NCBI GenBank assembly: GCA_963823665.1
Contig: CAWGMQ010000011.1
Location: 128,001 to 192,000 of the forward strand
Length of the DNA stretch: 64,000 nt
Direction of reading: 5' to 3'
DNA from: an uncultured Planctomycetota bacterium
GTDB taxonomy: Bacteria > Planctomycetota > Planctomycetia > Isosphaerales > Isosphaeraceae
Position numbers and translations under genes: made by a program. How positions within the stretch are numbered: the stretch's first letter is position 1; every line of letters begins with the position of its first letter. The notes beneath the pieces are model-generated. The model did no database searches and was not told where the DNA came from. It saw only the letters and a list, made by a program, of their open reading frames with translations. Shown in pieces: positions 24,107-44,518 of this stretch.

Positions 24107-24135
24107 CGGAGCACCCCGGTTCGGTTCACTACCGA

Positions 24136-26772: not shown

Positions 26773-26840
26773 GCGATCGATGTTATCACGGGCGGGATTC
26801 GCGGGGTAGCGGGATTGGCGGGGACGGCAGCGCAAGAGGT

Positions 26841-28745
26841 CTATCTTGCGGCCGCCGCAGGGACGTTAACCTGGCCGTCAAACGGCTCGGACACGGGAAG
26901 CACGAAGGTGTAATCGTGGACAAGCAGCCCCGTGGTGCCGACCATGAAGTCGCGGTTCTCGGCGACCGTCAAGTTAAAGACCATCTGGGTTGCGTCGCGC
27001 TCGATCGAGTCGACGGTGGCGAGACCGCCCACTGTGCGGAGGCGATCGCCCGCCTTCAGGTCGCGCGCCATGGTCCAGCCCTTGCCGGCCTTCCAGAAGC
27101 GGTGGATGCCGGTGGCGACGATGGTTTCGCTGCCGATCGCGAGGCGGAAGGTTTCCGCGGGGCCGGTCTTGTGGGTGACCAGCACGGGCTGATAAGACAG
27201 CGCGCCGGTCGTTGTGTGTTGTGACAGGACGCGGTCACCGACGGCGATCGATTCGATCTTGCGCGGGCCGATCAGGGTCTGCACCAAGGTGCCCGCGGCG
27301 AAGCAGGAAGGGCTGAAGATGATGGCAGGGAGATTCACGGCAAGATCCGGGAGCTCCACATCACTGACGTAGGTCGGCTTGGTTTCGGCATACCGATCGT
27401 CGTAGACGTAGCCAAGCTGGTCCGTCCACCACTTTTGCCAGAGCTGCGGATCCGCCGGCATTTTCTGGGCCGTGAGCGTTTCCAGAAGCGCCAGCAGCCG
27501 GCCGTTGATTTCGTTGATCTGCGCGTTCGCTTCTTCGATCGCTTGGATATCGTCCTCGATTGTCCGTTCGACGAGGAGGTTGGCTCGCCCGGTCGCTGCG
27601 AGGCCATCGGCCACCATGAAGCCCCATTGAGAGGCCAGCAACCGGTTGGTGAGAACAACCTGTTCGACGACAGCGGGCATCGCCATCATATTGGCGTGTA
27701 CTTTGCCAGAGCCGGCAGTCATGTTCAGGTCGGGCGAGCGATAGAGCCTCTGGAGGTCGAATTGTTCGCCGTCGACCAACAAGGCGGACGTCGAGCCCGG
27801 CCCCGTACCTCTCTTGAGCTCGTACTTAAACGGCTTGTGGAGCCGGTTGATCATCCAGCCGATTGTGTCGCGCGGATCACGGAACGTAACCGCCCGGGCC
27901 GCGCGGCTGCGAACTTCGCTCGACGGCTTGTCGATGGCGAGCACGAGCAGGCAGAACGATGCCCCGGGGCCTTCAATCTGCGAGAAAAGCTCAACCGCGA
28001 CGAGCTGCGCTTTCTCGCTGCCATTGGCGAAGACCTTCCAGATCATCGGAACTGCGCGGGGATCCGTCACCTGATAGAGTTCTTTCTCCGCCTTCAAGCG
28101 CCGCGTCTCGATGGTGCTTTCCACCGCTTCGCGCAGTTTTTCGAGGCGCGGCTTCCACTCTTTATCGGAGCGTTTCTGGCGATCGGCTTCGAGCTTCTGA
28201 GCTGCGAGCTGATCGGGCTTCATCCAGTGGTCGTGAACCCTCTTGAACCCAAGGCGGATCCATGCGACATCTCGCGACGGATCGAGGCGGGTCACCGCGA
28301 AGTAGTGGGCGCGAGATTCGTCCTTCAGGCCGTTGTCGATGCACCAGGCGGCGAGGCGCAACTGGGCATCGACGTTTTTCTGGGGTGTGCGGACGCGGCG
28401 ATCGAGGTATTCGCGGAAGATGGTTTGGGATTTCGAGTCGCTCTCGATCTCTCGCTCGACCTGGTCGGGCTTCACCCATCGTCCCTGGACGGCCACGAGG
28501 CCGAGCAAGCCGCGAGCGAGCAGATTGGCCGGGGCGAGGGAAACCGCGAGGTTCAAATGTTTGACACGCTCGGCCGTCATGCCGTGAGCTTCGCACCAGA
28601 GGGCGAGCTGAACGTGAGCGGCGGGGTTCTTGGCGGCCTTGGCGGCGGCGGCCTCGTAGGCGGCGCGATCCGTTGCGCTGGCGGTCTCGGTGGGTTTGCC
28701 ACCATCCCCCAGCATGACACAACAGAGCAGGATTACTTGAATCAT
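26841..28745 (-). CDS. Hint-domain protein, copy 9 (last transcribed)
   Basis: MIQVILLCC; ALWCEAH; LAAWC; W..WW; Hint from SCFAAGTLV via TGIHRFW to LLVHD (26913-27305); 23-aa tail. Confidence 0.92.
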   Translation of the reverse strand: MIQVILLCCVMLGDGGKPTETASATDRAAYEAAAAKAAKNPAAHVQLALWCEAHGMTAERVKHLNLAVSLAPANLLARGLLGLVAVQGRWVKPDQVEREIESDSKSQTIFREYLDRRVRTPQKNVDAQLRLAAWCIDNGLKDESRAHYFAVTRLDPSRDVAWIRLGFKRVHDHWMKPDQLAAQKLEADRQKRSDKEWKPRLEKLREAVESTIETRRLKAEKELYQVTDPRAVPMIWKVFANGSEKAQLVAVELFSQIEGPGASFCLLVLAIDKPSSEVRSRAARAVTFRDPRDTIGWMINRLHKPFKYELKRGTGPGSTSALLVDGEQFDLQRLYRSPDLNMTAGSGKVHANMMAMPAVVEQVVLTNRLLASQWGFMVADGLAATGRANLLVERTIEDDIQAIEEANAQINEINGRLLALLETLTAQKMPADPQLWQKWWTDQLGYVYDDRYAETKPTYVSDVELPDLAVNLPAIIFSPSCFAAGTLVQTLIGPRKIESIAVGDRVLSQHTTTGALSYQPVLVTHKTGPAETFRLAIGSETIVATGIHRFWKAGKGWTMARDLKAGDRLRTVGGLATVDSIERDATQMVFNLTVAENRDFMVGTTGLLVHDYTFVLPVSEPFDGQVNVPAAAAR

Positions 28746-28800
28746 GGATTCAGCTCCCGGGGAAGTTCCTGTTTGTCAACTGGGTGCGCCGGCGATCGTG

Positions 28801-30717
28801 TCAGCGGGGCACCGTCTGCGCCGCTGTGGCTGGGTGGTCGAACGGCTGGGAAACCGGCAGGACGAAACTGACGTCGTGAACCAGGCAACCGGCGTTTCCT
28901 ATCAGGAAGTCGCGATTCTCGGCCACGTTCAGGTTATACACACTCTGGGTGGCGTCGGGCTCGATCGATTGAACGGTTGTGGTGCCGGCGATTGCACGAA
29001 GACGATCACCTGGCTTCAAGTCGCGCGCCATGATCCATCCCTTGCCGGCCTTCCAGAATCGATGGATTCCCGTGGTGACGATAATCTCGCCGTCAATCGC
29101 GAGCCGGAACGTTTCCGCGCCGTTTCGTACGGTGGTATTGAGAACGGGCTGGAAAGAGAGGGCTCCGGTCGATGTGTCCTGAGAGAGCACGCGGTCGCCG
29201 ATGCTGAGCGACTCAATTTTCTTCAGACCGCCCGAGGTGTGCACCAAGGTGCCCGCTGCGAAGCAGGACATCTTGTAGTAGGACACCATCGGCAGAATAA
29301 CGGACACATCAGGGGCTTCCACCGTGTCGGTGTACAGGGGCTTGTTCTGATCCGACGGGTCGTTGTATGAGAGGCCGAGCTGCTCACCCCACCACTGTCG
29401 CCATGCCCCGGGAAGTTCTCCAAGCTTTTCGCCAGTCAGAGATTCGAGAAGAGCGAACGCGCGGCCGTTGGTCTCGTTGATTTGCGCGTTGGCGTCATCG
29501 ATCGTCCGGACGTCTTCTTCAAGCGATTGCCGGATGGTGTCATTTCGCGCCTGGCTTTGCGCAATCGCATCGGCGATCAGATTGGGCCATAGCGCTCTCA
29601 GCATGCGGTCCATGGGGATCGCCGCGCGCATCTGGCGCGCCGATTCCGCGGCCATGTTGTGCGATATCATGGCCGACATCAGCGGCACGAAGTTGAAATT
29701 CACGTCGGAGTAACGATAAAACCGCCTGCGGTCGAATTTCTCGCCGTCGACCAGCAGAGTGGCCGTCGAGCCACCACCGGCTCCTTCAATGACCTCGTAC
29801 TTGTAGGGTTTGCGGAGCAGGCTCGTGAGCCAGCCGATGACTTCGCGAGGATCGCGATACTTGAGCGCTCGGCCGGCGTGCGAACGCACTTCGCTCGAGG
29901 GACTATTGATCGCCAGTGCGAGGATGCAATACGACGCCCCTGGCCCGTCGATCTGCGAGAAAAGCTCGATCGCGACAAGCTGCATTTTCTCATTTCCGCC
30001 GCCGAAGACTTTCCAGATCGATGGGACAGCGCGGGGGTCGGTGATCTGGTAGAGTTCCTTCTCGGCTTTCAATCGCCGCGATTCCGTCGGGCTTGCAAGC
30101 GCGTCTCGAAGCTTTTCGAGCCGCGGCTTCCACAGTGAGTCGGCGCGTTTCTGGTGTTCGGCTTCGAGCTTCTGGGTGGCCAGGTCCTCAGGCTTCGACC
30201 AGCGGTCGTGTTGCTTTTTGTAGCCCAATTTCACCCAGGCGATATCTCGTGATGGGTCGAGACGAGTGACCAGGTGGTAGTGGGCAATGGCCTCGTCCTT
30301 GAGTCCGTTCTCAAGGCACCAGGCGGCGAGTCGCAACTGGGCGTCGACGTTTTTTTGAGGTGTGTGCACGCGGCGATCGAGGTACTCGCGGTAGAGGGCG
30401 TCGAACTTCGGGTCGGCGTGGATTTCCTTCTCGACCTGGTCGGGTTTGGCCCATTTGCCCTGGAAGGCCATCAGGCCCAAGAGGGCACGGGCGAGCGCAT
30501 TTGAAGGGTCGAGAGACGACGCGATGGTCAGGTGCTTGATTCGCTCGGAGGAGAGGCCGTGGGTTTCGCACCAGAGTGCCAACTTGACGTGTGCGGCCGC
30601 GCTCTTGCCGGCTTTGGCGGCGGCGGCTTCGTAGGCGGCTCGATCGCTGGGGCTCGGGTCGGCGGGTTTGTTGCCGTCAGTGAGGATGGCACAGCAGAGC
30701 AGGATGACGTGGACCAT
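28801..30717 (-). CDS. Hint-domain protein, copy 8
   Basis: Same architecture; MSCFAAGTLV...CLVHD. Confidence 0.92.
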   Translation of the reverse strand: MVHVILLCCAILTDGNKPADPSPSDRAAYEAAAAKAGKSAAAHVKLALWCETHGLSSERIKHLTIASSLDPSNALARALLGLMAFQGKWAKPDQVEKEIHADPKFDALYREYLDRRVHTPQKNVDAQLRLAAWCLENGLKDEAIAHYHLVTRLDPSRDIAWVKLGYKKQHDRWSKPEDLATQKLEAEHQKRADSLWKPRLEKLRDALASPTESRRLKAEKELYQITDPRAVPSIWKVFGGGNEKMQLVAIELFSQIDGPGASYCILALAINSPSSEVRSHAGRALKYRDPREVIGWLTSLLRKPYKYEVIEGAGGGSTATLLVDGEKFDRRRFYRYSDVNFNFVPLMSAMISHNMAAESARQMRAAIPMDRMLRALWPNLIADAIAQSQARNDTIRQSLEEDVRTIDDANAQINETNGRAFALLESLTGEKLGELPGAWRQWWGEQLGLSYNDPSDQNKPLYTDTVEAPDVSVILPMVSYYKMSCFAAGTLVHTSGGLKKIESLSIGDRVLSQDTSTGALSFQPVLNTTVRNGAETFRLAIDGEIIVTTGIHRFWKAGKGWIMARDLKPGDRLRAIAGTTTVQSIEPDATQSVYNLNVAENRDFLIGNAGCLVHDVSFVLPVSQPFDHPATAAQTVPR

Positions 30718-30774
30718 GAGTTTCTCACTTCGGGTTCTGAGGGTGACCCTGACGCGAACACGCCCGCGATTAGA

Positions 30775-32739
30775 TCACTTGGGCGCCGCCTGCGCCGGGC
30801 TGGTCAGGCGGTCGAACGGATCGGACACCGGTAAAACGAAGCTGAAGTCGTGGACCAGCAGGCCGGCCGTGCCGACCAGGTAGTCGCGGTTTTCCGCGAC
30901 CGTCAAGTTGTAGACCATTTGTGTCGGGCCGGGCTCGATCGATTCGATCGTGGTGGCGCCGCCCAACATGCGGAGGCGGTCACCGGCTTTCAGGTCGCGG
31001 GCCATGGTCCAGCCGTTGCCGGCTTTCCAGAAGCGGTGGATACCGGTGGCGACGATGGTTTCGCTGTCCTGCGTGATTCGCAATGTAGCGGATGGACCAT
31101 TCACGTGAGTGGCCAGAACCGGTTGGAACGACAGTGCGCCGGTGGATGTCTGCTGGGACAGGATGCGGTCGCCCACGGTCACCGATTCAATCTTTTGAGG
31201 GCCGGTGAGCGTTTGGACCAACGTTCCGGCAGCGAAGCAGGCACCATGCGGCCGCGCGGGTGCACCCGGCACGAAGCCCGTCACCACGGAGACCTGGATG
31301 TTGGGCGTGTCAACCGAATCGACAAAGGTCGGTTTCGCACTGGAGTAGCGATCGTCATAAACATAACCGAGCTGTTCCGCCCACCACCGCCGCCATGCCT
31401 GGGGGTCGGCGCCCAATTTCTGCCCGGTCAGCGATTCAAGGACAGGCAACAATCGCTCGTTGAATTGATCGATTTGAGTGTTGGCGGCCTGGATCATCCG
31501 GATGTCGTCCTCGAGCGTCTTCTGCACAGCGGCTGTCGCTTGAAGCGATTGTTGCATTGCAGCGGCGATCGACATCTCCCGTTCCCATGCGAGATTCAAA
31601 TTGAACTGAGCACTGGCTGTCAGTGCCTGCGGGGCCCTGGCCGAGGACGTCGGCACGACCATGCCGCCGGCCATCGGGGCAGCCGTCGGCATGGAAGCCA
31701 CGGGCGGCGACATGCGCGTCTCGACGGTGGGAAACCAATAGAAACGCTGAAGGTCGAACTGCTCGCCGTCGACGACGAGTGAGCCGGTCGAGCCAGAGCC
31801 AGTTCCCGGGTTGATCTTGTACTTGTACGGCTTGTGAACCATGTTGATCAGCCGGCCGATCACGTCGCGCGGGTCGCGCCCGAGGAGTGCCTGCGCGGCA
31901 CGTTCGCGCACGTCGGCTGAAGGTGAATCGAGAGCAAGCAGTGCAATACCGCTCGAGGCGGTCGGCCCCTCGATCTGGCTGAACAGCTCGACCGCGACGA
32001 GCTGGATTGTCGGGCTGCCAGAGGCGAAGGTCGTCCAGATCATCGGCACGGCGCGGGGATCCGTGATCTGATAGACTTCGCGCTGAGCCTTGAGCCTGCG
32101 GGCCTCAATCGTGCTTTCCAGTGCGGCGCGTAGTTTTTCCAGTCGCGGTCTCCACTCCTTATCGGCGCGCTTCTGTCGATCGGCTTCGAGTTTCTGGACG
32201 GCCAGGTCGTCGGGCTTGACCCAGCGATCGTGGTTTTTCTTGTAGCCGAGGCGGACCCACGCGATATCGCGGGAGGGGTCGAGGCGGGTGACCACGTTGT
32301 AGTGAGCCATGGCCTCATCCTTGAGCCCCTTTTCCAGGCACCAGGCAGCGAGTCGCAACTGGGCGTCCGCGTTCTTCTGGGGTGTGCGAACGCGGCGATC
32401 AAGGTATTCGCGAAAGACGGCCTGGAGCTCGGGATCCTCGTGGATTTCCTTCTCGACCTGGTCGGGTTTGGCCCATTTGCCTTGGAAGGCGATCAGGCCG
32501 AGGAGCGCTCGGGCAAGCGCGTTTGAGGGGTCGAGAGACGACGCGATGGAGAGGTGCTTGATTCGCTCGGCGGAGAGGCCGTGGGTTTCGCACCAGAGGG
32601 CGAGCTTCACGTGCGCGGCGGCGTTCTTGCCGGCGTTGGCGGCGGCAGTCTGATAGGCAGCGCGATCGGCGGGTGTCGCCTCGGCGAGCTTGCCGTCGTC
32701 GCCCAACATGAGGAAGCAGAGCAGAATTGCTTGGACCAT
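30775..32739 (-). CDS. Hint-domain protein, copy 7
   Basis: Start set at MVQAILLC by alignment and ggag RBS; GACFAAGTLV...LLVHD. Confidence 0.92.
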   Translation of the reverse strand: MVQAILLCFLMLGDDGKLAEATPADRAAYQTAAANAGKNAAAHVKLALWCETHGLSAERIKHLSIASSLDPSNALARALLGLIAFQGKWAKPDQVEKEIHEDPELQAVFREYLDRRVRTPQKNADAQLRLAAWCLEKGLKDEAMAHYNVVTRLDPSRDIAWVRLGYKKNHDRWVKPDDLAVQKLEADRQKRADKEWRPRLEKLRAALESTIEARRLKAQREVYQITDPRAVPMIWTTFASGSPTIQLVAVELFSQIEGPTASSGIALLALDSPSADVRERAAQALLGRDPRDVIGRLINMVHKPYKYKINPGTGSGSTGSLVVDGEQFDLQRFYWFPTVETRMSPPVASMPTAAPMAGGMVVPTSSARAPQALTASAQFNLNLAWEREMSIAAAMQQSLQATAAVQKTLEDDIRMIQAANTQIDQFNERLLPVLESLTGQKLGADPQAWRRWWAEQLGYVYDDRYSSAKPTFVDSVDTPNIQVSVVTGFVPGAPARPHGACFAAGTLVQTLTGPQKIESVTVGDRILSQQTSTGALSFQPVLATHVNGPSATLRITQDSETIVATGIHRFWKAGNGWTMARDLKAGDRLRMLGGATTIESIEPGPTQMVYNLTVAENRDYLVGTAGLLVHDFSFVLPVSDPFDRLTSPAQAAPK

Positions 32740-32803
32740 GATTTTCTCCAAAGGCGGGGCGATACTCGCGATTCTGAATATTGCACGTTGGCAATGAGGA
32801 CAA

Positions 32804-34717
32804 CTACTTCTGCGCTGGCGGCGCCTCCGTTCGCTGGCGGTCGAATGGCTCGGTAACCGGGAGGACGAAGCTGAAATCGTGCACCAGCAGACCGGAGGAG
32901 CCTACCAGGAAGTCACGGGCCTGGGCGACGTCCAGGTTATACACCTTCTGGGATGGGCCCGGCTCGATCGATTCAACTTTCACGACGCCGCAGATCATGC
33001 GGAGCCGATCGCCGACGCTCAAGTCGCGTGCCATGGTCCAGCCTTTGCCGGCCTTCCAGAAGCGGTGAATGCCGGTGGCGACGATGGTTTCGCCGCCTGC
33101 GGAAATTCGCAGCGTATCGGCGGGGCCATTCACGTGCGTGGCGAGCACGGGCTGGAACGAGAGGGCACCGGTTCCGGTGTCCTGCGAGAGGACGCGGTCG
33201 CCGAGGGCGATCGCCTCGATCTTGCGTGGGCCGGCGAAGGTCTGGACCAAGGTTCCGGCTCCGAAGCAGGCGTTGTGGGGAACCAGGATCGGAAACCCGA
33301 CGAAATCGGTAAACGTGGGCTTGTTCTCGGCATATCGGTCATCGATGACGACGCCCTGCTGGTCTGCCCACCACGTTTGCCAGGCCTGGGGATCAGCACC
33401 AAAACTCTGGCCGGTGAGCGATCGCAGGAGCGGCAGCACAGTGTCGTCGGTCTGTCTGATTTGCGCGTTGACCTGCTCGATCGTTTCGACGTCGCTTTCC
33501 AGTTTCTGCTGCACGATCTGATCGCGGCGAACGCTTTCCTGGAAGAGCGCCGTGGCGACTTGCTGTTGTGCCAGTGCGTGAGCCCGGCCGGAGATCGTCA
33601 TCACGGCCGCAGCGCCGTTGCCGGACTGACCGGCGGCGGGTGTGGGAGTGACCAGCATCGCATTCCAGGCAATTGTTGCGGGTGGGACCAAGCCAACCTC
33701 CACGTCGGGGAAACGATAGAAGCGCCGGATGTCGAACCGTTCGCCGTCGACGAAGAGGGCGCCGATCGATCCAGGGCCGGATCCCGGCCTGATTTCGTAT
33801 TTGAATGGCCGATGAATGGCGGCTACGAGCCAGCCGATCACGTCGCGGGGGTCGCGGTTCGTCAGGGCTTTGGCGGCGCGCGAGCGGACATCGGCCGAGG
33901 GCCTCTCGACGGCGAGCACGGCCAGTCCGAACGATGCCGCGGGCCCTTCGATCTGGGAGAGCAGCTCGACGGCGACGAGCTGCATCTTTTCACTGCCGTG
34001 GCCGAAGATCTTCCAGATCATCGGCAGCGCGCGGGGATCGGTTACCTGGTAGAGCTCGCGCTCGGCTTTCAACCGGCGCGTCTCGACCGGGCTTTCCATG
34101 GCTTCGTGCAGCTTCTCGAGTCTCGTCTTCCACTCTTTATCGGCGTGCTTCTGGCGCTCAGCTTCGAGCTTCTGGGCCGCGAGAACCTCGGGCTTTGACC
34201 AGCGGTCGAGGTGCTTCTTGTAGCCAAGGCGAATCCAGGCGATGTCTCGCGACGGATCGAGGCGGGTGACCAGATGGTAGTGGGCCATGGCCTCGTCCTT
34301 GAGTCCGTTTTCGAGGCACCAGGCGGCCAGGCGCAACTGGGCGTCGACGTTTTTTGGAGGTGTGCGCACGCGGCGATCGAGGTACTCGCGGACGAGGGCC
34401 TGGAGCTTGGGGTCGGCGTGGATTTCCTTCGCGACCTCGTCGGGTTTGGCCCATTTGCCCTGGAAGGCCATCAGGCCCAAGAGGGCGCGGGCCAGCGCAT
34501 TTGAAGGGTCGAGAGACGACGCGATGGTCAGGTGCTTGATTCGCTCCGAGGAAAGGGTGTGGGTTTCGCACCAGAGGGCGAGCTTCACGTGCGCGGCGGC
34601 GTTCTTGCCGGCCTTGGCGGCGGCCGTTTCGTAGGCGGCGCGATCGCTTGCAGCTCGCTCGGGGGGTTTGCCGCCGTCGGTGAGGATGGCACAACAGAGC
34701 AGGATGGCGTGGAGCAT
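32804..34717 (-). CDS. Hint-domain protein, copy 6
   Basis: Start set at MLHAILLCC; NACFGAGTLV...LLVHD. Confidence 0.92.
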   Translation of the reverse strand: MLHAILLCCAILTDGGKPPERAASDRAAYETAAAKAGKNAAAHVKLALWCETHTLSSERIKHLTIASSLDPSNALARALLGLMAFQGKWAKPDEVAKEIHADPKLQALVREYLDRRVRTPPKNVDAQLRLAAWCLENGLKDEAMAHYHLVTRLDPSRDIAWIRLGYKKHLDRWSKPEVLAAQKLEAERQKHADKEWKTRLEKLHEAMESPVETRRLKAERELYQVTDPRALPMIWKIFGHGSEKMQLVAVELLSQIEGPAASFGLAVLAVERPSADVRSRAAKALTNRDPRDVIGWLVAAIHRPFKYEIRPGSGPGSIGALFVDGERFDIRRFYRFPDVEVGLVPPATIAWNAMLVTPTPAAGQSGNGAAAVMTISGRAHALAQQQVATALFQESVRRDQIVQQKLESDVETIEQVNAQIRQTDDTVLPLLRSLTGQSFGADPQAWQTWWADQQGVVIDDRYAENKPTFTDFVGFPILVPHNACFGAGTLVQTFAGPRKIEAIALGDRVLSQDTGTGALSFQPVLATHVNGPADTLRISAGGETIVATGIHRFWKAGKGWTMARDLSVGDRLRMICGVVKVESIEPGPSQKVYNLDVAQARDFLVGSSGLLVHDFSFVLPVTEPFDRQRTEAPPAQK

Positions 34718-34747
34718 GGTTTTCTCCGGCACAATAATGCGGCGAGT

Positions 34748-36676
34748 TTACTTGGAGCCAACTGCCGCCGTGCTTGTCAGGCGGTCAAACGGTTCAGAAA
34801 CCGGGAGTACGAAACCGTAGTCGTGTACGAGCAGGCCGGCGGAGCCGACCATGAAGTCGCGGTTCTGTGCGACATCGAGGTTATACACCTTCTGGGATGG
34901 GCCGGGCTCGATTGATTCAATTGTCACGACGCCGCCGATCATGCGGAGGCGATCGCCGGCGCTCAAGTCGCGGGCCATGGTCCAGCCTTTGCCGGCTTTC
35001 CAGAATCGGTGGATGCCGGTGGCGACGATCGTTTCGCGACCTGCGGAAATACGAAGCGTCTCCGTGGGTCCATTCACGTGGGTAGCAAGCACGGGCTGGA
35101 ACGAAAGGGCACCGGTCGTTGTGTCCTCCGAGAGGATGCGGTCGCCGATGGCGATCGACTCGATCGTGCGCGGGCCGGCGAGTGTCTGAACCAATGTCCC
35201 GGCGGCGAAACAGGAATGGTGCGGAACGACGTCCGGCAGCGAGACGAAATCGGTGAACGTGGGCTTGTTCTGGGCCTGGGCATACCGGTCATCAACGACG
35301 ACGCCGAGCTGGTCTGCCCACCAAGTTTTCCACGCCTGCGGGTCGGCGCCAAAATTCTGGCCGGTGAGCGAACCGAGCAGCGGGAGCACGCGGTCGTTGG
35401 TCTGGTTGATCTGGGCATTCACGTCCTCGACCATCGCGACGTCGCTTTCGAGTTTCTGCCGCACCACCTGGTCGCGAGCGAAGGCTTCTTGCAACATTAT
35501 GGCGCCGAGCTGCTGCCGCCCAATTGCATAGGCCCTGCCCGACAGCGTCATCATGGTCGACACCTGCGACGCGCTCGAACCGGCCTGCGTGGTGACGGGA
35601 GCCGGGTTCAAAATCGGCAGGTTCGCGAGAACCTGAACCGGTGGCATCAATTGAGCCTCCACCTCCGGGAAGCGATAGAATCGCCGGATGTCAAATCGTT
35701 CGCCGTCCACAAGAAGCGATCCGGTCGATCCGGGGCCGGCTCCGGGCTTGATTTCGTACTTGAACGGCCGATGGATGGCGCTCACGAGCCAGCCAATGAC
35801 GTCTCGGGGATCGCGGTTCGTGAGGGCTTTGGCGGCACGCGAGCGGACGTCGGCCGACGTCCGTTCGAGCGCTAGCACGGCCAGTCCGAACGACGCCGCT
35901 GGCCCTTCGACCTGGGAGAGGAGCTCGACGGCGACGAGCTGCATCTTTTCACTGCCGTTGCCGAAGGTTTTGAAGATCATTGGAAGCGCTCGGGGATCGG
36001 TCACCTTGTAGAGCTCACGCTCGGCCTTCAGCCGCCGTGTCTCGATCGAGCTTTCCATGCCGTCGCGCAGCTTCTCGAGCCGCGGCTTCCACTCCTTATC
36101 GGCTAGTTTCTGGCGATCGGCTTCAAGCTTCTGGGCCGCGAGAACCTCGGGCTTTGACCAGCGGTCATGGTGCTTCGTGAATCCGAGCCGAAGCCAGGCG
36201 ACATCCCGAGAAGGGTCGAGTTGCGTCACGACGTGGTAGTGCGCCATCGCCTCGTCCTTGAGTCCGTTTTCGAGGCACCAGGCGGCGAGTCGCAACTGGG
36301 CGTCGACGTTTTTTTGAGGTGTGTGCACGCGGCGATCGAGGTACTCGCGGTAGAGGGTGTCAAACTTCGGGTCGGCGTGGATTTCCTTCTCAACCTGGTC
36401 GGGTTTGGCCCATTTGCCCTGGAAGGCCACCAAGCCCAAGAGGGCGCGGGCAAGCGCATTTGAAGGGTCGAGAGACGACGCAATGGTCAGGTGCTTGATT
36501 CGCTCTGAGGAAAGGCCGTGGGTTTCGCACCAGAGAGCGAGCTTGACGTGCGCGGCGGGGTTTTTGCCGGCTTTGGCGGCGGCCGCGTCGTAGGCGGCTC
36601 GATCGGCGGTGGTCGCCTCGGCGGGTTTTCCGCCGTCACCCACCAACACAAGGCAGAGCAGGATTGCGTGGAGCAT
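34748..36676 (-). CDS. Hint-domain protein, copy 5
   Basis: MLHAILLC; HSCFAAGTLV...LLVHD. Confidence 0.92.
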   Translation of the reverse strand: MLHAILLCLVLVGDGGKPAEATTADRAAYDAAAAKAGKNPAAHVKLALWCETHGLSSERIKHLTIASSLDPSNALARALLGLVAFQGKWAKPDQVEKEIHADPKFDTLYREYLDRRVHTPQKNVDAQLRLAAWCLENGLKDEAMAHYHVVTQLDPSRDVAWLRLGFTKHHDRWSKPEVLAAQKLEADRQKLADKEWKPRLEKLRDGMESSIETRRLKAERELYKVTDPRALPMIFKTFGNGSEKMQLVAVELLSQVEGPAASFGLAVLALERTSADVRSRAAKALTNRDPRDVIGWLVSAIHRPFKYEIKPGAGPGSTGSLLVDGERFDIRRFYRFPEVEAQLMPPVQVLANLPILNPAPVTTQAGSSASQVSTMMTLSGRAYAIGRQQLGAIMLQEAFARDQVVRQKLESDVAMVEDVNAQINQTNDRVLPLLGSLTGQNFGADPQAWKTWWADQLGVVVDDRYAQAQNKPTFTDFVSLPDVVPHHSCFAAGTLVQTLAGPRTIESIAIGDRILSEDTTTGALSFQPVLATHVNGPTETLRISAGRETIVATGIHRFWKAGKGWTMARDLSAGDRLRMIGGVVTIESIEPGPSQKVYNLDVAQNRDFMVGSAGLLVHDYGFVLPVSEPFDRLTSTAAVGSK

Positions 36677-36733
36677 TTGTTTCTCAGTTCGGCGTCTGAG
36701 GGTGGCCGCGAAGGTGACACGTTGGCGATGAGA

Positions 36734-38707
36734 TCACTTGGACGCCGCCGGCGCCACGATCGTTTGGCGGTCGAACGGTTCGGGCACCGGTAAAACGAAG
36801 CTGAAGTCGTGGACCAGCAGGCCGGCCGCGCCGACCAGGTAGTCGCGGTTTTCCGCGACGGTCAAGTTATAGACCATTTGTGTCGGGCCGGGCTCGATCG
36901 ATTCGATCGTGGTGGTGCCACCGATCATTCGGAGGCGGTCGCCGGCTTTCAGGTCGCGGGCCATGGTCCAGCCTTTGCCGGCTTTCCAGAAGCGGTGGAT
37001 GCCGGTGGCGACGATGGTTTCGCCGGCCTGCGTGATTCGCAATGTGGCCGATGGACCATTCAGGTGGGTGGCCAGAACCGGCTGGAACGACAGAGCGCCG
37101 GTGGATGTCTGCTGGGACAGGATGCGGTCGCCCACGGTCACCGATTCAATCTTTCGAGGGCCGGTGAGCGTCTGGACCAACGTTCCGGCAGCGAAGCATG
37201 CGCCATGCGGCTGGTGGACCGGTCCCCCGAATACGAGCAGAAAGATGTGGCGGTGCGCCGCACTCGCGCCGATGTCGGGCGGGTTGACCGAATCGACGCG
37301 GGTTGGTTTGGCACTGGGATAACGATCGTCATCGACATAACCGAGCAGATCCGTCCACCAACGCCGCCATGCCTCGGGATCGGCGCCCAGACTCTGCCCG
37401 GTGAGCGTTTCAAGGATAGGGAGCACGCGGTCGTTCAGTTGATCGATCTGCGTGTTCAAGTCCTGTATCATTCTGATGTCGTCCTCGAGCTTCTGCTGCA
37501 CGGAGGCGTTCGCTTGAAGCAACTGTCGGGTCGCGGTGGCGGTCGACATCTCCGGTTCCGGTCTGGCGGTTGCATTGTAATAGGCAAAGGATGTTGCCGT
37601 GTGACCGGCGCCCAAATCCTTGATGAGGACGTGGCCACCAGCGGCGGTGACAGTCGTGAGCTCGAACGCGGGAGGCGCCATGCGCGGATCGAAGGTGGGA
37701 AACCGGTAGAAACGTTTCAGGTCGAACTGCTCGCCGTCGACCTCGAGCGAGCCAGTCGAGCCCGAGCCTGTTCCCTGGTTGATCTTGTACTTGTAGGGCT
37801 TGTGAACCATGTAGATCAGCCGGCCAATCACGTCGCGCGGGTCGCGCTCGAGGAGAGCCTGCGCGGCACGTTTGCGCACGTCCGGTGAAGGTGAATCGAG
37901 AGCAAGCAGTGCAATACCGCTTGAAGCGGTCGGCCCCTCGATCTGGCTGAACAGCTCGACCGCGACGAGCTGGATCGTCTCGCTGCCATTGCAGAAGGTC
38001 CTCCAGATCATCGGCACGGCGCGGGGATCGGTGATCTGATAGACTTCGCGCTGGGCCTTGAGCCTGCGGGTCTCAATCGTGCTCTCGAGCGCGCCTCGTA
38101 GTTTTTCCAGTCGCGGCCGCCACTCCTTATCGGCGCGCTTCTGTCGTTCGGCTTCGAGTTTCTGGGCAGCCAGGTCGTCGGGCTTGACCCAGCGGTCGTG
38201 GGTTTTCTTAAAGCCGAGGCGGACCCACGCGATATCGCGCGAGGGGTCGAGGCGGGTGACCACGTTGTAGTGAACCATGGCCTCGTCCTTGAGTCCGTTT
38301 TCGAGGCACCAGGTGGCGAGTCGCAACTGGGCGTCGACGTTCTTCTGGGGTGTACGAACGCGGCGATCAAGGTATTCCCGGATCAGTGCCTGGAGCTTGC
38401 GGTCGTCGTGGATTTGCTTTTCGACCTGATCCGCTTTGGCCCATTTGCCCTGGAAGGCCATCTGGCCCAGGAGGCCGCGGGCGAGGACGTTCGAGGGGTC
38501 GAGGGTCGATGCGATGGTCAGATGCTTGGCTCGCTCGGAGGAGAGACCGTGAGTTTCGCACCACAGGGCAAGCTTGACGTGCGCGGCGGCGTTCTTGCCG
38601 GCCTTGGCGGCGGAAGCCTCGTAGGCGGCTCGATCGCCGGCGCTTGAATCCGCGGGTTTGCCGCCGTCGGCGAGCAAGGCGACGCAGAGCAGGATGACAT
38701 GGACCAT
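36734..38707 (-). CDS. Hint-domain protein, copy 4
   Basis: Start set at MVHVILLC; GACFAAGTLV...LLVHD. Confidence 0.92.
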   Translation of the reverse strand: MVHVILLCVALLADGGKPADSSAGDRAAYEASAAKAGKNAAAHVKLALWCETHGLSSERAKHLTIASTLDPSNVLARGLLGQMAFQGKWAKADQVEKQIHDDRKLQALIREYLDRRVRTPQKNVDAQLRLATWCLENGLKDEAMVHYNVVTRLDPSRDIAWVRLGFKKTHDRWVKPDDLAAQKLEAERQKRADKEWRPRLEKLRGALESTIETRRLKAQREVYQITDPRAVPMIWRTFCNGSETIQLVAVELFSQIEGPTASSGIALLALDSPSPDVRKRAAQALLERDPRDVIGRLIYMVHKPYKYKINQGTGSGSTGSLEVDGEQFDLKRFYRFPTFDPRMAPPAFELTTVTAAGGHVLIKDLGAGHTATSFAYYNATARPEPEMSTATATRQLLQANASVQQKLEDDIRMIQDLNTQIDQLNDRVLPILETLTGQSLGADPEAWRRWWTDLLGYVDDDRYPSAKPTRVDSVNPPDIGASAAHRHIFLLVFGGPVHQPHGACFAAGTLVQTLTGPRKIESVTVGDRILSQQTSTGALSFQPVLATHLNGPSATLRITQAGETIVATGIHRFWKAGKGWTMARDLKAGDRLRMIGGTTTIESIEPGPTQMVYNLTVAENRDYLVGAAGLLVHDFSFVLPVPEPFDRQTIVAPAASK

Positions 38708-38737
38708 GATTTTCTCCCGCACGCTTGCGCGGCGAGC

Positions 38738-40619
38738 TCATCTGGAAGCAATGGGTGCAGCGTTTGTGACGCGGTCAAACGGCTCGGAAACCGGTTGCAC
38801 GAAGCTGAAGTCGTGCACGAGCAGGCCGGCGCTGCCGACCAGGAAGTCGCGGTTCTCGGCGACCGTCAGGTTATAGACCTTCTGGGTCGGTCCGGGCTCG
38901 ATTGACTGAATGGATACGATTCCGCCAATCATGCGCAGGCGATCGCCGGATTTCAGGTCGCGGGCCATGGTCCAGCCGTTGCCGGCCTTCCAGAAGCGGT
39001 GGATGCCGGTGGCGACGATGGTTTCGCTGCCGAGCGCGATTCGCAGTGTTTGGGACGGGCCGTTCAGATGGGTGGCGAAAACGGGCTGGAACGACAGTGC
39101 GCCGGTTGAAGATTGCTGAGACAGGACGCGGTCGCCGGCGGCGATGGATTCGATCTTGCGCGGGCCTGTGACGGTTTGAACCAGGGTCCCGGCGGCGAAG
39201 CAGGCCGTGTGCGGAACGATCACCTCTGTGAAGAGGGGCTTATCCTCGGAATAGCGCGAGTCGTAGACATAGCCTAGCTGCTCGGTCCACCACTTCTTCC
39301 ACTGTTCGGGGTCGACGCCGAAGTTCTGGTTGGTGAGCGACTCGAGCAGGGGCAGGGTGCGCTCATTCGTCTGGGTGATCTCGGCGTTCCATTTCTCCAG
39401 GTCGCGAACGTCGTCTTCGATCCGACGCTGGGTCAGCTCCGCCACTTGCTGAGAGCGCACAGACGGTTCCGGAAAATAGGAGGTGCCCGGGAAGGCGCTC
39501 GTGAGCATTTGACCGGCGGATCTCGCAGAACCGGTATGTCCGACGTTTGCGCTGGCCTGCTGCATCCCGGATGTAAAATTCAGGACTGGAACGAGCCGCA
39601 AGTCGAGGGGAGGAGGTTCATAAAACCGCTCGAGGTCGAATCGTTCTCCATTAACCTTCAGCAAGGCAGGCGTGCCCGGACCTTGCTCCTGCGTTAGCTC
39701 GTATTGATACGGCTTGTGGATGACGGTGACCAACCAGCCTATGATGTTGCGCGGATCGCGGCGTGCCAGGGCGCGCCTCGCCTGGTCGCGGATCGCAGGC
39801 GACGGCCTCTTGATTGCCAGTGCGGCGATCCAGAACGATGCCGCCGGTCCTTCGATCTGCGAGAGCAGTTCAACGGCGACCACCTGACTTTGCTCGCTTC
39901 CATTTCCCAGGATCATGGCAATCAGCGGGACGGCGGGGGTCGTTCACTTGATAGACCTCTCGTTCCGCCTTCAGCCGCCGTGCCTCGATCTTGCTCTCGA
40001 GTCCGTCGCGCAGTTTCTCGAGACGCGACTTCCACTGTACGTCGGCGCGTTTCTGGCGGTCGGCTTCGAGCTTCTGCGCGGCCAGGTCTTCAGGCTTCTG
40101 CCAGCGATCCTTGTGCTTCTTGTAGCCGAGGCGTATCCAGGCAATGTCGCGGGCGGGGTCCAAGCGCGTCACCAGATAGTAGTGAGCCATCGCCTCTTCA
40201 TTGAGCCCGTGTTCGAGGCACCAATTCGCGAGCCGCAACTGGGCGTCAGCCTTGTTCCGGGGAGCCTGCACGCGGCGCTCGAGGTATTCCCGGAGCCGGG
40301 CCTGGAACTTGGGGTCGTTCTGGATGTCCTGCTCGACCTGGTTGGGTTTCGCCCATTTTCCCTGGAACGGCACCAGCCCCAGCAAGCCTCGCGCCTGAGT
40401 ATTCGGGGGGTCGAGAGCGACGGCGAGCGTCAGATGCTTGGCTCGCTCGGCCGTGAAGCCGTGCGCCTCGCACCAGAGCGCGAGCTGGACGTGCGCGGCG
40501 GCGTTCTTGCCGGCCTTTGCGGCGGCAGCCTCGTAGGCGGAACGATCGGCAGCGTTAGATTCGGCGGGCTTGCTGCCGCCGTCGAGCATGGCACAACAGA
40601 GCAGGATCGCGTGGAGCAT
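38738..40619 (-). CDS. Hint-domain protein, copy 3 (1-bp frameshift at ~39930)
   Basis: ORFs 39870..40619 and 38738..39916 join into one paralogue; compared with copy 1, one base is missing in the NDPRAVP codons. Confidence 0.88.
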
Positions 40620-40651
40620 GGTTTTCCTTCCGCACAGATAGCGCGGCGGGC

Positions 40652-42589
40652 TTACTTGGAAGCAATCGGCGCAGTGTTCGTCAGGCGGTCAAATGGTTCG
40701 GAAACCGGGAGCACGAAACCGTAGTCGTGTACCAGCAAGCCGGCGGAGCCGACCAAGAAGTCGCGGTTCTCAGCGACGTTCAATTTAAAGACCATTTGGG
40801 TGGCACCTGGCTCGATCGAGTCGATGATGGCGACACCGCCCAGCATGCGGAGGCGATCGCCGGCTTTCAGGTCGCGCGCCATGGTCCAGCCCTTGCCGGC
40901 CGTCCAGAAGCGGTGGATGCCGGTGGCGATGATGGTTTCGCCGGCGAGCGAGATCCGGAACGTTTCGGCGGGACCGTTCAAGTGTGTGGCCAGAACGGGC
41001 TGGAAGGAAAGCACGCCCAAGGTTGTGTGTTGCGAAAGGACGCGGTCGCCGACGGCGATCGATTCGATCTTTCGCGGGCCGCCCAACGTTTGGACCAAGG
41101 TTCCCGAAGCGAAACACGCATGATGCAAGAATACGTTCACATTAACGATGGGGAGTTGTACGGTCAGATCTGGTGCAGTCACGACTTCGGAAAAGGACAG
41201 CTTACCGTCGGAATCACTGTCGTAATTGACGTATCCGAGCTGGTCAGTCCACCAATTTCGCCACGCGTCGGGATTAATGCCGAGCTTCTGGCCGGTTCGC
41301 GATTCCAGGATCGGCAGCAATCGCGCATTGGATTCATCGATTCGCGCATTGACCTCGTCGATCGCGCGAGCGTCATCGTAAACAGCTCGCTGCATCTCGC
41401 CCACTTGCTGCAGGTTCGCGACCGTTGCTTGCGCGAGGATTGCGGATTGCCTCCGCAAGGAGGCAGCTTGGATCGCCGAGGCCTCGGCGATCATCTGGGT
41501 CGCCTGCTGCGGGGTGGCGTCGGGTTGGGGAACCATCAGCACGATGTGGCTCACGGGAACCAGGCGAACGTCGAGGTCCGGGAAACGATAGAGTCGTTGG
41601 AGATCGAACCGTTCTCCGTCGACAAAGAGCGTGCCGGTTGATCCGGGATTCGCTCCGGGCCTGACTTCGTACTTGAAGGGTTTGTGAAGCCGGTTTATCA
41701 TCCAGCCGATGACATCGCGAGGATCGCGGTGTGCGATCGCCTGGGCGGTTCGCGCGCGGATGGCGCTCGAGGGATTGTCGATCGCCATTAACGGCAGGCA
41801 GAACGATGCCCCAGGGCCCTCGATCTGGGTGAACAGCTCGACCGCGACGAGCTGCATCTTTTCGCTGCCGCTGGCAAACGTTCTCCACATCGCCGGCACA
41901 GCGTGAGGGTCGGTAATTTGGTAAAGTTCCTTCTCGGCCTTCAGCGGCCGTGTCGCGACCGAGCTTTCCAGGGCATCGCGCAGCTTCTCGAGCCGGGATT
42001 TCCGGTGCATATCAGCACGCTTCTGGCGATCGGCTTCGAGCTTCTGGGCAGCCAGGTCGTCGGGCTTGACCCAGCGGTCGCGGTGTTTCTTGTAGCCCAG
42101 GCGCAGCCAGGCGATATCCCGGGACGGGTCGAGCCCGGTCACCACGTGGTAGTGAGCCAGGGCCTCGTCCTTGAGCCCGTTTTCGAGGCACCAGGCAGCC
42201 AGCCGCAACTGGGCGTCAGCATTTTTCGAGGGAGTGCGCACCCGTCGCTCGAGGTACTCACGAAAGAGAGCAAGCAGCTTGGGATCGTCGTCCAGGTCGT
42301 GCTTGACCTGTTCGGGCTTGGCCCATTTTCCCTGGAAGGTGACCAGGCCCAGAAGGCCCCGGGCCAAGGCATTTGCCGGGTCGAGCGAGAGAGCCAGGTT
42401 GAGATGCTTCACTCGCTCGGACGTGAGTCGATGCGCTTCGCACCAGAGAGCGAGCTGCACTTGCGCGGGGGCGTTCTTGCCGGCCTTGGCGGCGGCGGTT
42501 TCGTAGGCGGCTCGATCGCTGGCGTTTGATTCGGCGGGCTTGCTGCCGCCGGCGAACAGGGCACAAGAGAGCAGGATTGCGTGGAGCAT
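40652..42589 (-). CDS. Hint-domain protein, copy 2
   Basis: HACFASGTLV...VFKLNV...LLVHD. Confidence 0.92.
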   Translation of the reverse strand: MLHAILLSCALFAGGSKPAESNASDRAAYETAAAKAGKNAPAQVQLALWCEAHRLTSERVKHLNLALSLDPANALARGLLGLVTFQGKWAKPEQVKHDLDDDPKLLALFREYLERRVRTPSKNADAQLRLAAWCLENGLKDEALAHYHVVTGLDPSRDIAWLRLGYKKHRDRWVKPDDLAAQKLEADRQKRADMHRKSRLEKLRDALESSVATRPLKAEKELYQITDPHAVPAMWRTFASGSEKMQLVAVELFTQIEGPGASFCLPLMAIDNPSSAIRARTAQAIAHRDPRDVIGWMINRLHKPFKYEVRPGANPGSTGTLFVDGERFDLQRLYRFPDLDVRLVPVSHIVLMVPQPDATPQQATQMIAEASAIQAASLRRQSAILAQATVANLQQVGEMQRAVYDDARAIDEVNARIDESNARLLPILESRTGQKLGINPDAWRNWWTDQLGYVNYDSDSDGKLSFSEVVTAPDLTVQLPIVNVNVFLHHACFASGTLVQTLGGPRKIESIAVGDRVLSQHTTLGVLSFQPVLATHLNGPAETFRISLAGETIIATGIHRFWTAGKGWTMARDLKAGDRLRMLGGVAIIDSIEPGATQMVFKLNVAENRDFLVGSAGLLVHDYGFVLPVSEPFDRLTNTAPIASK

Positions 42590-42622
42590 CGTTTTCCTCT
42601 CTCCCGCACGATGGCGACGAGG

Positions 42623-44518
42623 TCACCTGGGCGTTGCCGGCGTTGTGTTGGTTTGGCGATCGAATGGCTCGGAAACCGGTTGCACGAAGCTGAAGTCGTG
42701 CACGAGCAGGCCGGCGCTGCCGACCAGGAAGTCGCGGTTCTCGGCGACCGTCAGGTTATAGACCTTCTGGGTCGGTCCGGGCTCGATTGACTGAATGGAC
42801 ACGATTCCGCCAATCATGCGCAGGCGATCGCCGGATTTCAGGTCGCGGGCCATTGTCCAGCCCTTGCCGGCCTTCCAGAAGCGGTGGATGCCGGTGGCGA
42901 CTATGGTTTCGCTGCCGAACGCGATTCGCAGTGTTTGGGACGGGCCGTTCAGATGGGTGGCGAGAACGGGCTGGAATGACAGTGCGCCGGTTGAAGATTG
43001 CTGAGACAGGACGCGGTCGCCGACGACGATGGATTCGATCTTGCGCGGGCCTGTGATCGTTTGAACCAGGGTTCCGGCGGCGAAGCAGGCCGTGTGCGGA
43101 ACCGGAGCGATCATCTCCATGAAGACGGGCTTAGGCTCGGAAGAGCGCGAGTCGAAGACATAGCCTAGCTGCTCGGTCCACCACTTCTTCCATTGTTCGG
43201 GGTCGAGGCCGAAGTTCTGATTGGTGAGCGACTCGAGCAGTGGCAGGACGCGCTCATTCGTCTGGTTGATCTGGGCGTTCCGTTCCTCCAGGTCGCGAAC
43301 GTCGTCTTCGATCCGACGCTGGGTTAGCTCCGCCGATTCCTGAGAGCGCAGAGTCGGTTCCGTGACGTAGGAGGCGCCGTGGTAGGCGCTCGTGAGCATT
43401 TGACCGGCGAAACTCCCAGAACCGGTATAACCGCCGTGTGCGCTGACATGCTGCATCCCGGATGTAAAATTCAGGACTGGAACGAGCCGGAAGTCGACGG
43501 CAGCAGGTTCGTAAAACCGCTCGAGGTCGAATCGTTCTCCGTTAACCTTCATGAAGGCAGGGGTGCCCGGACCTTGCTCCTGCGTTAGCTCGTATTTATA
43601 CGGCTTGTGGATGACAGTGACCAACCATCCTATGATGTCGCGCGGATCGCGGCGTGCCAGGGCTCGCCTCGCCTGGTCGCGGATCGCAGGCGACGGCTTG
43701 TTGATTGCCATTGCGGCGAGCCAGAACGATGCCGTCGGTCCTTCGATCTGCGAGAGCAGCTCAACGGCGACGACCTGACTTTGCACGTTTCCATTCCCCA
43801 GGATCCTGGCAATCAGCGGGACGGCGCGAGGGTCGTTCACTTGATAGACCTCTCGTTCCGCCTTCAGCCGCCGTGCCTCGATCTTGCTCTCGAGTCCGTC
43901 GCGCAGTTTCTCGAGACGCGATTTCCACTGTTCGTCGGCGCGTTTCTGGCGGTCGGCTTCGAGCTTCTGCGCGGCCAGGTCTTCAGGCTTGAACCAGCGA
44001 TCCCTGTGCTTTTTATAGCCGAGGCGTATCCAGGCAATGTCGCGGGAGGGGTCGAGGCGCGTCACCAGATAGTAATGAGCCATCGCCTCTTCATTGAGGC
44101 CCTGTTCGAGGCACCAATTCGCGAGCCGCAACTGGGCGTCAGCCTTGTTCTGGGGAACCTGCACGCGGCGCTCGAGGTATTCCCGGAGCCGGGCCTGGAA
44201 CTTGGGGTCGTTCTGGATGTCCTGCTCGACCTGGTTGGGTTTCGCCCATTTTCCCTGGAACGGCACCAGCCCCAGCAAGCCTCGCGCCTGAGTATTCGGG
44301 GGGTCGAGAGCGACGGCGAGCGTCAGATGCTTGGCTCGCTCGGCCGGGAAGCCGTGCGCCTCGCACCACAGGGCGAGCTGAACCTGATCCGCGGCGTTTT
44401 TCCCCGCCTTGGCTACGGCGGCTTGGTAGGCGAGGCGATCGGTTGCAGTTGGCTCTGGCTCGGCGGTCTTGCCGCCGTCTGCAAACATGGCACAACAGAG
44501 CAGGATGGCGCGGACCAT
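42623..44518 (-). CDS. Hint-domain protein, copy 1 (first transcribed)
   Basis: ggaggaag RBS; TACFAAGTLV (Cys codon 43085-43087)...LLVHD. Confidence 0.92.
   Translation of the reverse strand: MVRAILLCCAMFADGGKTAEPEPTATDRLAYQAAVAKAGKNAADQVQLALWCEAHGFPAERAKHLTLAVALDPPNTQARGLLGLVPFQGKWAKPNQVEQDIQNDPKFQARLREYLERRVQVPQNKADAQLRLANWCLEQGLNEEAMAHYYLVTRLDPSRDIAWIRLGYKKHRDRWFKPEDLAAQKLEADRQKRADEQWKSRLEKLRDGLESKIEARRLKAEREVYQVNDPRAVPLIARILGNGNVQSQVVAVELLSQIEGPTASFWLAAMAINKPSPAIRDQARRALARRDPRDIIGWLVTVIHKPYKYELTQEQGPGTPAFMKVNGERFDLERFYEPAAVDFRLVPVLNFTSGMQHVSAHGGYTGSGSFAGQMLTSAYHGASYVTEPTLRSQESAELTQRRIEDDVRDLEERNAQINQTNERVLPLLESLTNQNFGLDPEQWKKWWTEQLGYVFDSRSSEPKPVFMEMIAPVPHTACFAAGTLVQTITGPRKIESIVVGDRVLSQQSSTGALSFQPVLATHLNGPSQTLRIAFGSETIVATGIHRFWKAGKGWTMARDLKSGDRLRMIGGIVSIQSIEPGPTQKVYNLTVAENRDFLVGSAGLLVHDFSFVQPVSEPFDRQTNTTPATPR

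Follow-up and report, generated by a model that had tools for sequence, protein, structure and literature searches.

What does a Hint domain do when the residue at its C-terminal end is Asp rather than Asn? The question is raised by a 64,000-nucleotide stretch of an uncultured planctomycete of the Isosphaeraceae (GenBank assembly GCA_963823665.1, contig CAWGMQ010000011.1, positions 128,001 to 192,000; here called the window), in which nine tandem paralogous genes of ∼640 codons each lie on the minus strand from 44518 to 26841, spaced 30 to 64 bases apart. Each encodes a scaffold of helical and HEAT repeats, a Hint domain ending in HD, and a short tail. A first-pass annotation had placed the element at 26841 to 43087, short of the true start of the first gene at 44518, and had proposed that all nine Hints are wired for N-terminal cleavage only, by Hedgehog-like chemistry. 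Here we report that the terminal Asp is a trait of a whole family of scaffold-linked Hints, that this family is closer to type A bacterial intein-like (BIL-A) domains than to Hedgehog, and that processing at the N terminus of the Hint only, whatever its outcome, is likely.

When all six frames of the window were scanned, the Hint start motif was matched nine times and no more, each time on the minus strand; the annotated number of domains holds. Every start is followed by exactly 154 residues before the stop codon, made up of a 131-residue Hint and a 23-residue tail (9/9). The domains have the Hint fold, a nucleophile at residue 1, and the block B TxxH motif that define the superfamily, and all nine score 45 to 66 bits against the Pfam PT-HINT profile (PF07591; cutoff, 27.7). 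The motifs read in the first pass are there: block A CF[AG][AS]GTLV, block B TGIH, Arg at the position of the block F His, and an HD end in place of HN were each found in nine of nine copies, with Phe (five), Tyr (three), or Val (one) immediately after the Hint (+1) and Ala (six) or Ser (three) immediately before Cys1 (−1). The block F pattern V[YF]NL.VA..RD[FY] was found in eight copies and not in copy 2, which reads VFKLNV, as the annotation itself had said. The Lys in that motif had been offered as a possible difference in activity; it is a private change, since it was seen in only 1 of 118 close homologues. In CthBIL4 (2LWY) and the RecA intein, the residue aligned with the block F Arg is His. 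Directly after HD comes a conserved tail, FVxPVxxPFD, which had been overlooked.

To place these features, we compared four sets of family members and one control set. The first held 118 Hints from the 120 closest homologues, the window's own copies included; for the second, the 150 best entries of a 50%-identity library supplied 142 proteins with the scaffold. The third (37 Hints from genomes of the same family) and the fourth (32 Hints, drawn from 30 genomes in ten other families) were picked with a profile of the scaffold only, and the controls were 39 Hints from proteins without the scaffold. Sixteen further rows stand outside all sets: ten scaffold-bearing loci (eight ending in Asp, one in Gly, and one truncated) and six short fragments that lack the scaffold and all end in Asp. 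The scaffold profile had a match in 59 of 61 same-family genomes, some of them weak and to more remote proteins.

The terminal residue was Asp in 117/118, 140/142, 36/37, and 31/32 Hints of the four sets, or 324/329 altogether. The other five comprised three gaps, one Ser, and one Gly, and Asn occurred in 0/329. Because 36 of the 39 control Hints end in Asn, as does the Rhs-type PT-Hint of the window's own genome (L012, ending HN), the HD pattern is not a matter of chance. In that genome, six of seven dispersed scaffold-linked Hints also read to HD in one frame, and the seventh is frameshifted. The terminal Asp is a family-wide trait. In a tree of 94 Hints built by a quick method without the last residue, the 59 family rows formed one side of a branch with a support of 58, a value compatible with either one origin or several. 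The residues for forming a thioester are kept as well, with Cys1 in 139/142 members of the second set and the block B His (H68) in 138/142; each is present in 31/32 of the distant set.

Other features that had been read as marks of N-cleavage-only Hints did not extend this far. Arg at position 13 of block F (F:13), tried as a defining trait, was dropped: it is found in 103/118 close homologues, and the position varies outside them (Arg 37, His 36, Gln 20, and Ala 14 of the 142), with His in 36/142 of the wider family and 12/32 distant members versus 30/39 controls. Among the 32 distant Hints, 14 have Glu, 11 have Ser, and 3 have Asp at −1, and the +1 residue is Asn in 103/142, with Ser there in only 6 of the 329 family Hints. 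Arg at F:13, Ala/Ser at −1, and Phe/Tyr/Val at +1 are thus traits of a clade. The tail, too, has more than one form; near-family tails end in P-F-D (Phe in 138 and Asp in 137 of 142), and distant tails contain PG in 30/32. A His at −2 or −3 of the junction was found in 92/117 close and 83/132 wider homologues, and the fly Hedgehog junction likewise has His at −2.

Several unusual Hints were also seen. Two paralogues in the window's genome, L017 (G000:C7, ∼566,600) and L020 (G000:C4, ∼1,969,400), are degenerate, without Cys1 and the block B His, and still keep HD and the tail; they could possibly serve as inactive controls. L150 and L166 are degenerate as well. Tandem Hints that end in HN, two to four per protein, occur in the proteins P0125, P0240, and L043; Lys at +1 and Gly-rich linkers are frequent there.

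Among known Hint systems, the best match was CthBIL4, a type A BIL (PF07591, 2LWY), at 30% identity, a Z score of 21.5, and a root mean square deviation of 1.3 over 134 residues. It has the same Cys1, TxxH, Asn at F:4, and VH ahead of the terminal residue. The window Hints differ from type A BILs and PT-HINTs in ending in HD rather than HN, in not keeping the block F His, in having no toxin or other released domain behind them but just the tail and a stop (9/9), and in belonging to a family tied to one scaffold, with family-specific residues at 45 to 49. The Hog domain of Hedgehog (1AT0 and 6TYY) matched with Z scores of 18.3 to 18.6. It shares with the family an exported precursor whose C-terminal Hint is predicted to cut only at its own N terminus, Cys1 and TxxH (present in the window copies), and a conserved residue at the C143 site; many members of the wider family also have His at what a weak sequence alignment gives as the D46 site. 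The label "Hedgehog-like" fits the catalytic positions, more so than the annotation knew. It fails in that D46, C143, and the region for sterol recognition (SRR) are all absent from the window copies, which have Asp for Cys143, no Cys in block G, and no His46 either; further, carriers of the family need not encode triterpene cyclases. The family is closer to BIL-A than to Hedgehog.

The remaining systems are less close. According to PMC4031507, Asp- and Gln-ending inteins also have a residue other than Asn after His. A real C-extein follows in them, with Cys, Ser, or Thr at +1; here, +1 is mostly Asn, Phe, Tyr, or Val and usually 14 to 30 residues are left. The +1 Cys, Ser, or Thr and C-extein that define class 1 inteins are likewise lacking, with Phe, Tyr, or Val in the window. 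Cleavage without splicing is also what type B BILs, Vint, and a group of secreted bacterial Hints (Burglin 2008; PMC2362128) are thought to perform, and several lie at the C terminus of exported proteins; the last group is proteobacterial. Type B BILs lack similarity in block G, where the present family keeps a BIL-A-like VHD. The Hint_2 profile (PF13403) matched only over its positions 2 to 35, below the cutoff in eight of nine window copies. Vint has VWA and Vwaint domains ahead of its Hint, but Pfam matched no VWA domain in the window proteins, and the Vint structure 8R2C reached a Z score of only 11.2. Type C BILs of predatory bacteria are characterized by type-C motifs and a conserved C-terminal flank.

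A set of relatives without any Hint bears on what the product of cleavage may look like. The window's genome has a cluster of four scaffold genes without a Hint (L199:4669-10212, G000:C8), and in the best 120 of the 298 homologues of these genes, we found a Hint in 0/120 and PFD near the end in 0/120. These proteins stop a median of 51 residues (43 to 57; n = 43) past the last conserved Trp, and Cys1 of the Hint-bearing proteins stands a median of 46 residues (31 to 65; n = 103) past the same Trp. Judged by these end points, the Hint-less proteins would match the product of N-terminal cleavage and not that of C-terminal cleavage or splicing, and they show that the scaffold can exist with a free C terminus. 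In a scaffold tree of 84 rows (FastTree, midpoint root, one long-branch outgroup), the 22 Hint-less rows formed one clade (support, 100), sister to the near-family Hint-bearing rows, and distant Hint-bearing rows surrounded the two. This topology points to loss of the Hint in the Hint-less lineage. The outgroup (L200:2643-4031, G000:C11) is a remoter Hint-less protein of the same repeat and HEAT layout.

Taken with the absence of Asn throughout the family, the natural ends other than HD, and the conserved, retained tail, these sisters ending at the junction support processing at the N terminus only, which we regard as likely. On this point the first-pass annotation was right, on stronger grounds than it gave, although some of its premises were wrong or too narrow. 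The natural ends comprise HG (L023 and L140), YD (L101, L106, and L126), ND (L098), and FD (L162). Because Asp is kept where the penultimate His is replaced (the YD, ND, and FD ends), a positive role for Asp131, rather than a mere loss of Asn, is suggested.

We propose that the precursor, consisting of a signal, the helical/HEAT scaffold with its two hypervariable segments, the Hint, and the short tail, would be exported, and that Cys1, aided by T65 and H68, would then attack the preceding peptide bond to form a thioester, as the intact motifs imply. With the invariant Asp in place of Asn, the C-terminal end would stay uncut and the tail would remain on the Hint. The Asp, by the active site and joined by His45/46 in this bacterial family, may activate a nucleophile or tune Cys1. 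The default nucleophile would be water. The mature scaffold so produced would end in variable region 2 followed by H-x-A/S-COOH and resemble the natural Hint-less sisters, and the Hint would be a removable, possibly triggered, pro-domain. Such hydrolysis to a free carboxylate is the single outcome that we favor, but only tentatively.

Several observations weigh against this hydrolytic outcome or its supports. The Asp, a His at 45 or 46 (132/142), and the tail are conserved more strictly than plain hydrolysis would obviously need, a pattern that fits transfer or Asp cyclization equally well. The penultimate His, an aid to C-terminal cleavage, is kept in 138/142, and a C-terminal cut remains conceivable, its absence being probable rather than certain. 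The direction of change, with the Hint lost, depends on a fast tree, an unsure midpoint root, and a single long-branch outgroup. Moreover, 109 of the 112 full-length Hint-less proteins end in D-x, mostly D-S, D-T, or D-G, within a conserved V-D-[S/T/G], which differs from the H-x-S end of the predicted cleavage product; the Hint-less proteins thus need not be exact mimics of that product. Asp followed by a small residue is a hotspot for Asp cyclization. One may speculate that the V-D-[S/T/G] end is an alternative way of activating the C terminus.

The thioester could instead be passed to an outside nucleophile, such as an amine or hydroxyl of the envelope or a target to which the hypervariable segments bind, much as animal Hedgehog proteins become linked to cholesterol. 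In that case, the Hint and tail would be a bacterial Hedgehog-like ligase or a covalent harpoon, with the tail as a minimal adduct-recognition region, Asp131 as a base or branched anhydride relay, and His45/46 as a general base. This is a real possibility, although a less likely one than hydrolysis. In structural alignments, Asp131 is the last aligned residue opposite the terminal Asn of CthBIL4 and of the RecA and DnaE inteins, and by the range endpoints (model 143 with chain 402) it falls on Hedgehog Cys400, that is, C143, provided that the last strand is ungapped. C143 is the site of the branched intermediate in Hedgehog (PMC12054796). In a weak sequence alignment (E value, 0.005), position 46 falls on Hedgehog D46 (1AT0), the site of the general base, where His is tolerated, and on H46 of the D46H structure (6TYY). 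It is His in 111/142 and 30/37 near-family members, within a family-specific H-N-x-P motif, and Hedgehog D46H is described as active with a wider substrate range (PMC9163320). Transfer would also suit the position of variable region 2 next to the thioester and the arrangement of the genes in diversified tandem arrays.

Other observations count against transfer. The window copies have Leu, Val, or Lys at position 46, with His at 45 in eight of nine (102/118 in the window clade), and distant members read T-x-R in this region, with His at 45 or 46 in 3/32 (3/39 in controls). His46 was therefore rejected as a family-wide trait. Because His is rare in distant members while Asp is constant, the Asp is the old and constant feature of the family and the His a later addition. 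In Hedgehog itself, C143D abolishes processing (PMC12054796). The 23-residue tail has no helix, either in the model of Hint and tail, where it is an ordered coil (predicted local distance difference test score of 87, then 72), or in the full-length model, where it is of low confidence; it thus lacks SRR-like helices, unlike the helix-loop-helix SRR. The Hint-less relatives show a scaffold existing without such an adduct.

As acceptor, the first pass had speculated on hopanoids or sterols. A hopene cyclase is encoded in 18/18 near-family genomes tested. In contrast, with at most 16 candidates scored per genome, no triterpene cyclase match at 1e-30 was found in 13/32 distant carrier genomes (94 to 99% complete, two of them single contigs, and one of the 13 with a degenerate Hint), versus a match in 10/12 genomes of a family without the scaffold. 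Since these carriers gave no cyclase match and nothing SRR-like is present, the family as a whole is unlikely to use a triterpenoid acceptor, and we rejected a hopanoid or sterol as the general one; within the case for covalent transfer, its share is close to negligible.

It would be more surprising still, and we consider it improbable, if the Asp substituted for Asn by cyclizing and freeing the tail. Both ends of the Hint would then be cut, or splicing of the BIL-A type would take place, the free amine of the tail attacking the thioester so that the tail is joined to the scaffold. The first-pass annotation had held that splicing requires a nucleophile at +1; according to PMC4031507, this is incorrect for type A BILs, the closest relatives, which splice by aminolysis without one, so that HD followed by Phe, Tyr, or Val does not by itself exclude C-terminal cleavage or splicing. 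The same paper describes Asp- and Gln-ending inteins as able to cyclize (the annotation had itself noted that rare inteins end in Asp) and the F:13 His as dispensable in some. CthBIL4 is the closest relative in fold and sequence, and an invariant Asp, a mostly kept His at G:6, and a conserved tail would all be expected under cyclization. However, the HG-ending members (L023 and L140, probably one lineage) cannot cyclize, the penultimate His is replaced by Tyr, Asn, or Phe in several members that keep Asp, and there is no return to Asn in 329 sequences. Nor do the Hint-less relatives mimic a spliced product, as a tail-like end occurs in 0/120. That the Hint has little or no catalytic activity and serves for structure or binding, with Asp kept for packing, is very improbable: degenerate members do exist (L017, in the same genome, L150, and L166) and the Hint was dispensable in one lineage, but almost every member across ten further families retains Cys1 and, in block B, both the Thr/Ser and the His.

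Coordinates of the genes and of the parts of copy 1 are collected in Table 1. When the eight intact copies are compared, identity averages 75% for the repeats, 76% for the Hint, and 79% over the first 12 residues of the tail, versus only 15% and 20% in variable regions 1 and 2, respectively. The N terminus is short and hydrophobic (best 11-mer hydropathy, 2.3 to 3.0), and no further membrane helix was found in the four copies checked. Distant members have long signal-like N termini, and in five of five fusions checked (P0188, P0197, P0198, P0225, and P0233), the scaffold and Hint come after an extracytoplasmic function (ECF) sigma factor and a single membrane helix. On the basis of these three observations, the nine proteins are probably exported, and the fusions point to a possible use of the scaffold-Hint module as a sensor. 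Together with the diversified tandem arrays and hypervariable segments, they suggest that the mature scaffold may bind or sense something outside the cytoplasm.

TABLE 1 Positions in the window of the nine genes and of features of copy 1
Feature	Position	Strand	Hint	Cys1	Remarks
Copy 1 gene	42623..44518	−			631 aa; short signal-like N terminus, two helical repeats, HEAT repeats, beta-hairpin, variable region 1, long helix, variable region 2, Hint, tail
Copy 1, variable region 1	43334..43507	−			Residues 338-395; modeled as disordered
Copy 1, variable region 2	43088..43114	−			Directly ahead of scissile bond; ends H-x-A/S
His at −2/−3 of junction	43088-43096				Window example; equivalent site in other copies
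Copy 1, Hint	42695..43087	−		43087	Cys1, His45, T65/H68, N111, R118, H130, D131
Copy 1, tail	42626..42694	−			23 residues; conserved FVxPVxxPFD
Copy 2 gene	40652..42589	−	40724-41116	41116	Lys at block F position 4
Copy 3 gene	38738..40619	−	38810-39202	39202	Two open reading frames via 2-nt deletion near 39,940; Hint intact
Copy 4 gene	36734..38707	−	36806-37198	37198	
Copy 5 gene	34748..36676	−	34820-35212	35212	
Copy 6 gene	32804..34717	−	32876-33268	33268	
Copy 7 gene	30775..32739	−	30847-31239	31239	
Copy 8 gene	28801..30717	−	28873-29265	29265	Sole copy without His45
Copy 9 gene	26841..28745	−	26913-27305	27305	

The frameshift of copy 3 is plausibly an assembly error because other genes of the same assembly, such as the triterpene cyclase gene, are also in pieces. 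The latter is spread over several frames (G000:C7:883206-884100; L134-L138), and this fragmentation and the many split paralogues suggest indel errors in the assembly. Seven sequencing runs, with shares of 0.05 to 0.11, were listed for the copy 3 region, none of them an RNA run.

Directly downstream of the array, on the same strand (22670-26835, minus), lie genes for a DUF1549/DUF1553 planctomycete cytochrome protein and a DUF1501 protein, which are not among the recurrent neighbors listed for family loci. The surroundings of 55 loci showed no gene that looks like a dedicated partner. Two kinds of neighbor recurred (among L058, L063, L073-L075, L078, L079, L085-L087, L092, L095, and L103): truB/hflX at one family locus and an unnamed exported protein (type L066:4342-5532) at another (12 loci); both probably reflect synteny among kin. 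Named relatives are planctomycetes, mostly Isosphaeraceae, and cultured carriers include Singulisphaera acidiphila DSM 18658, Paludisphaera soli, and Aquisphaera insulae.

Databases hold little on these proteins. A fold search with the whole model gave only generic helical-repeat matches for the scaffold (Z score up to 10), NCBIfam had no match above the cutoff for the family, the ESM Atlas returned only unnamed planctomycete clusters and HEAT/PT-HINT clusters, and homologues are labeled only PT-HINT, TPR, or hypothetical. In literature listings and the opening parts of abstracts, we found no description of the family or of an HD-ending, BIL-A-derived subtype, although alignments and supplements of the primary BIL papers could list such sequences. 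The available portions of PMC8195603, PMC3113570, PMC3482391, PMC2362128, PMC5874633, and PMC10189870 do not describe the family, and Kaur et al. 2021, considered as a possible description, was not borne out as such by its accessible text. The HD-ending subtype is apparently undescribed so far.

Hint cleavage at the N terminus only is already known; what is new is a BIL-A-derived subtype that is large and sharply delimited, with an invariant terminal Asp at the position where inteins and Hedgehog both have a known catalytic role and with a Hint-less sister family as a natural hint of what the product may look like. The family offers a cheap test of how a splicing-type Hint turns to N-terminal cleavage or ligation, and it bears on the origin of Hedgehog cholesterolysis. 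In its boldest form, which is an unlikely one, this class-wide planctomycete subtype would be an independently evolved bacterial counterpart of Hedgehog autoprocessing, in which Asp at the C143 site, with His at the D46 site in one family, relays the Cys1 thioester to an outside nucleophile; a repertoire of exported proteins whose hypervariable segments lie beside the reactive bond would thereby anchor themselves to the envelope or capture targets covalently, and the ECF-sigma fusions would make capture a transcriptional signal. If the reaction is only hydrolysis, the Hints would amount to a new but modest autoprotease subtype, carried by an exported and polymorphic protein family that is still unstudied. 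If transfer is true, it would give bacteria a new way to anchor or capture proteins covalently, as well as a compact tool for C-terminal labeling.

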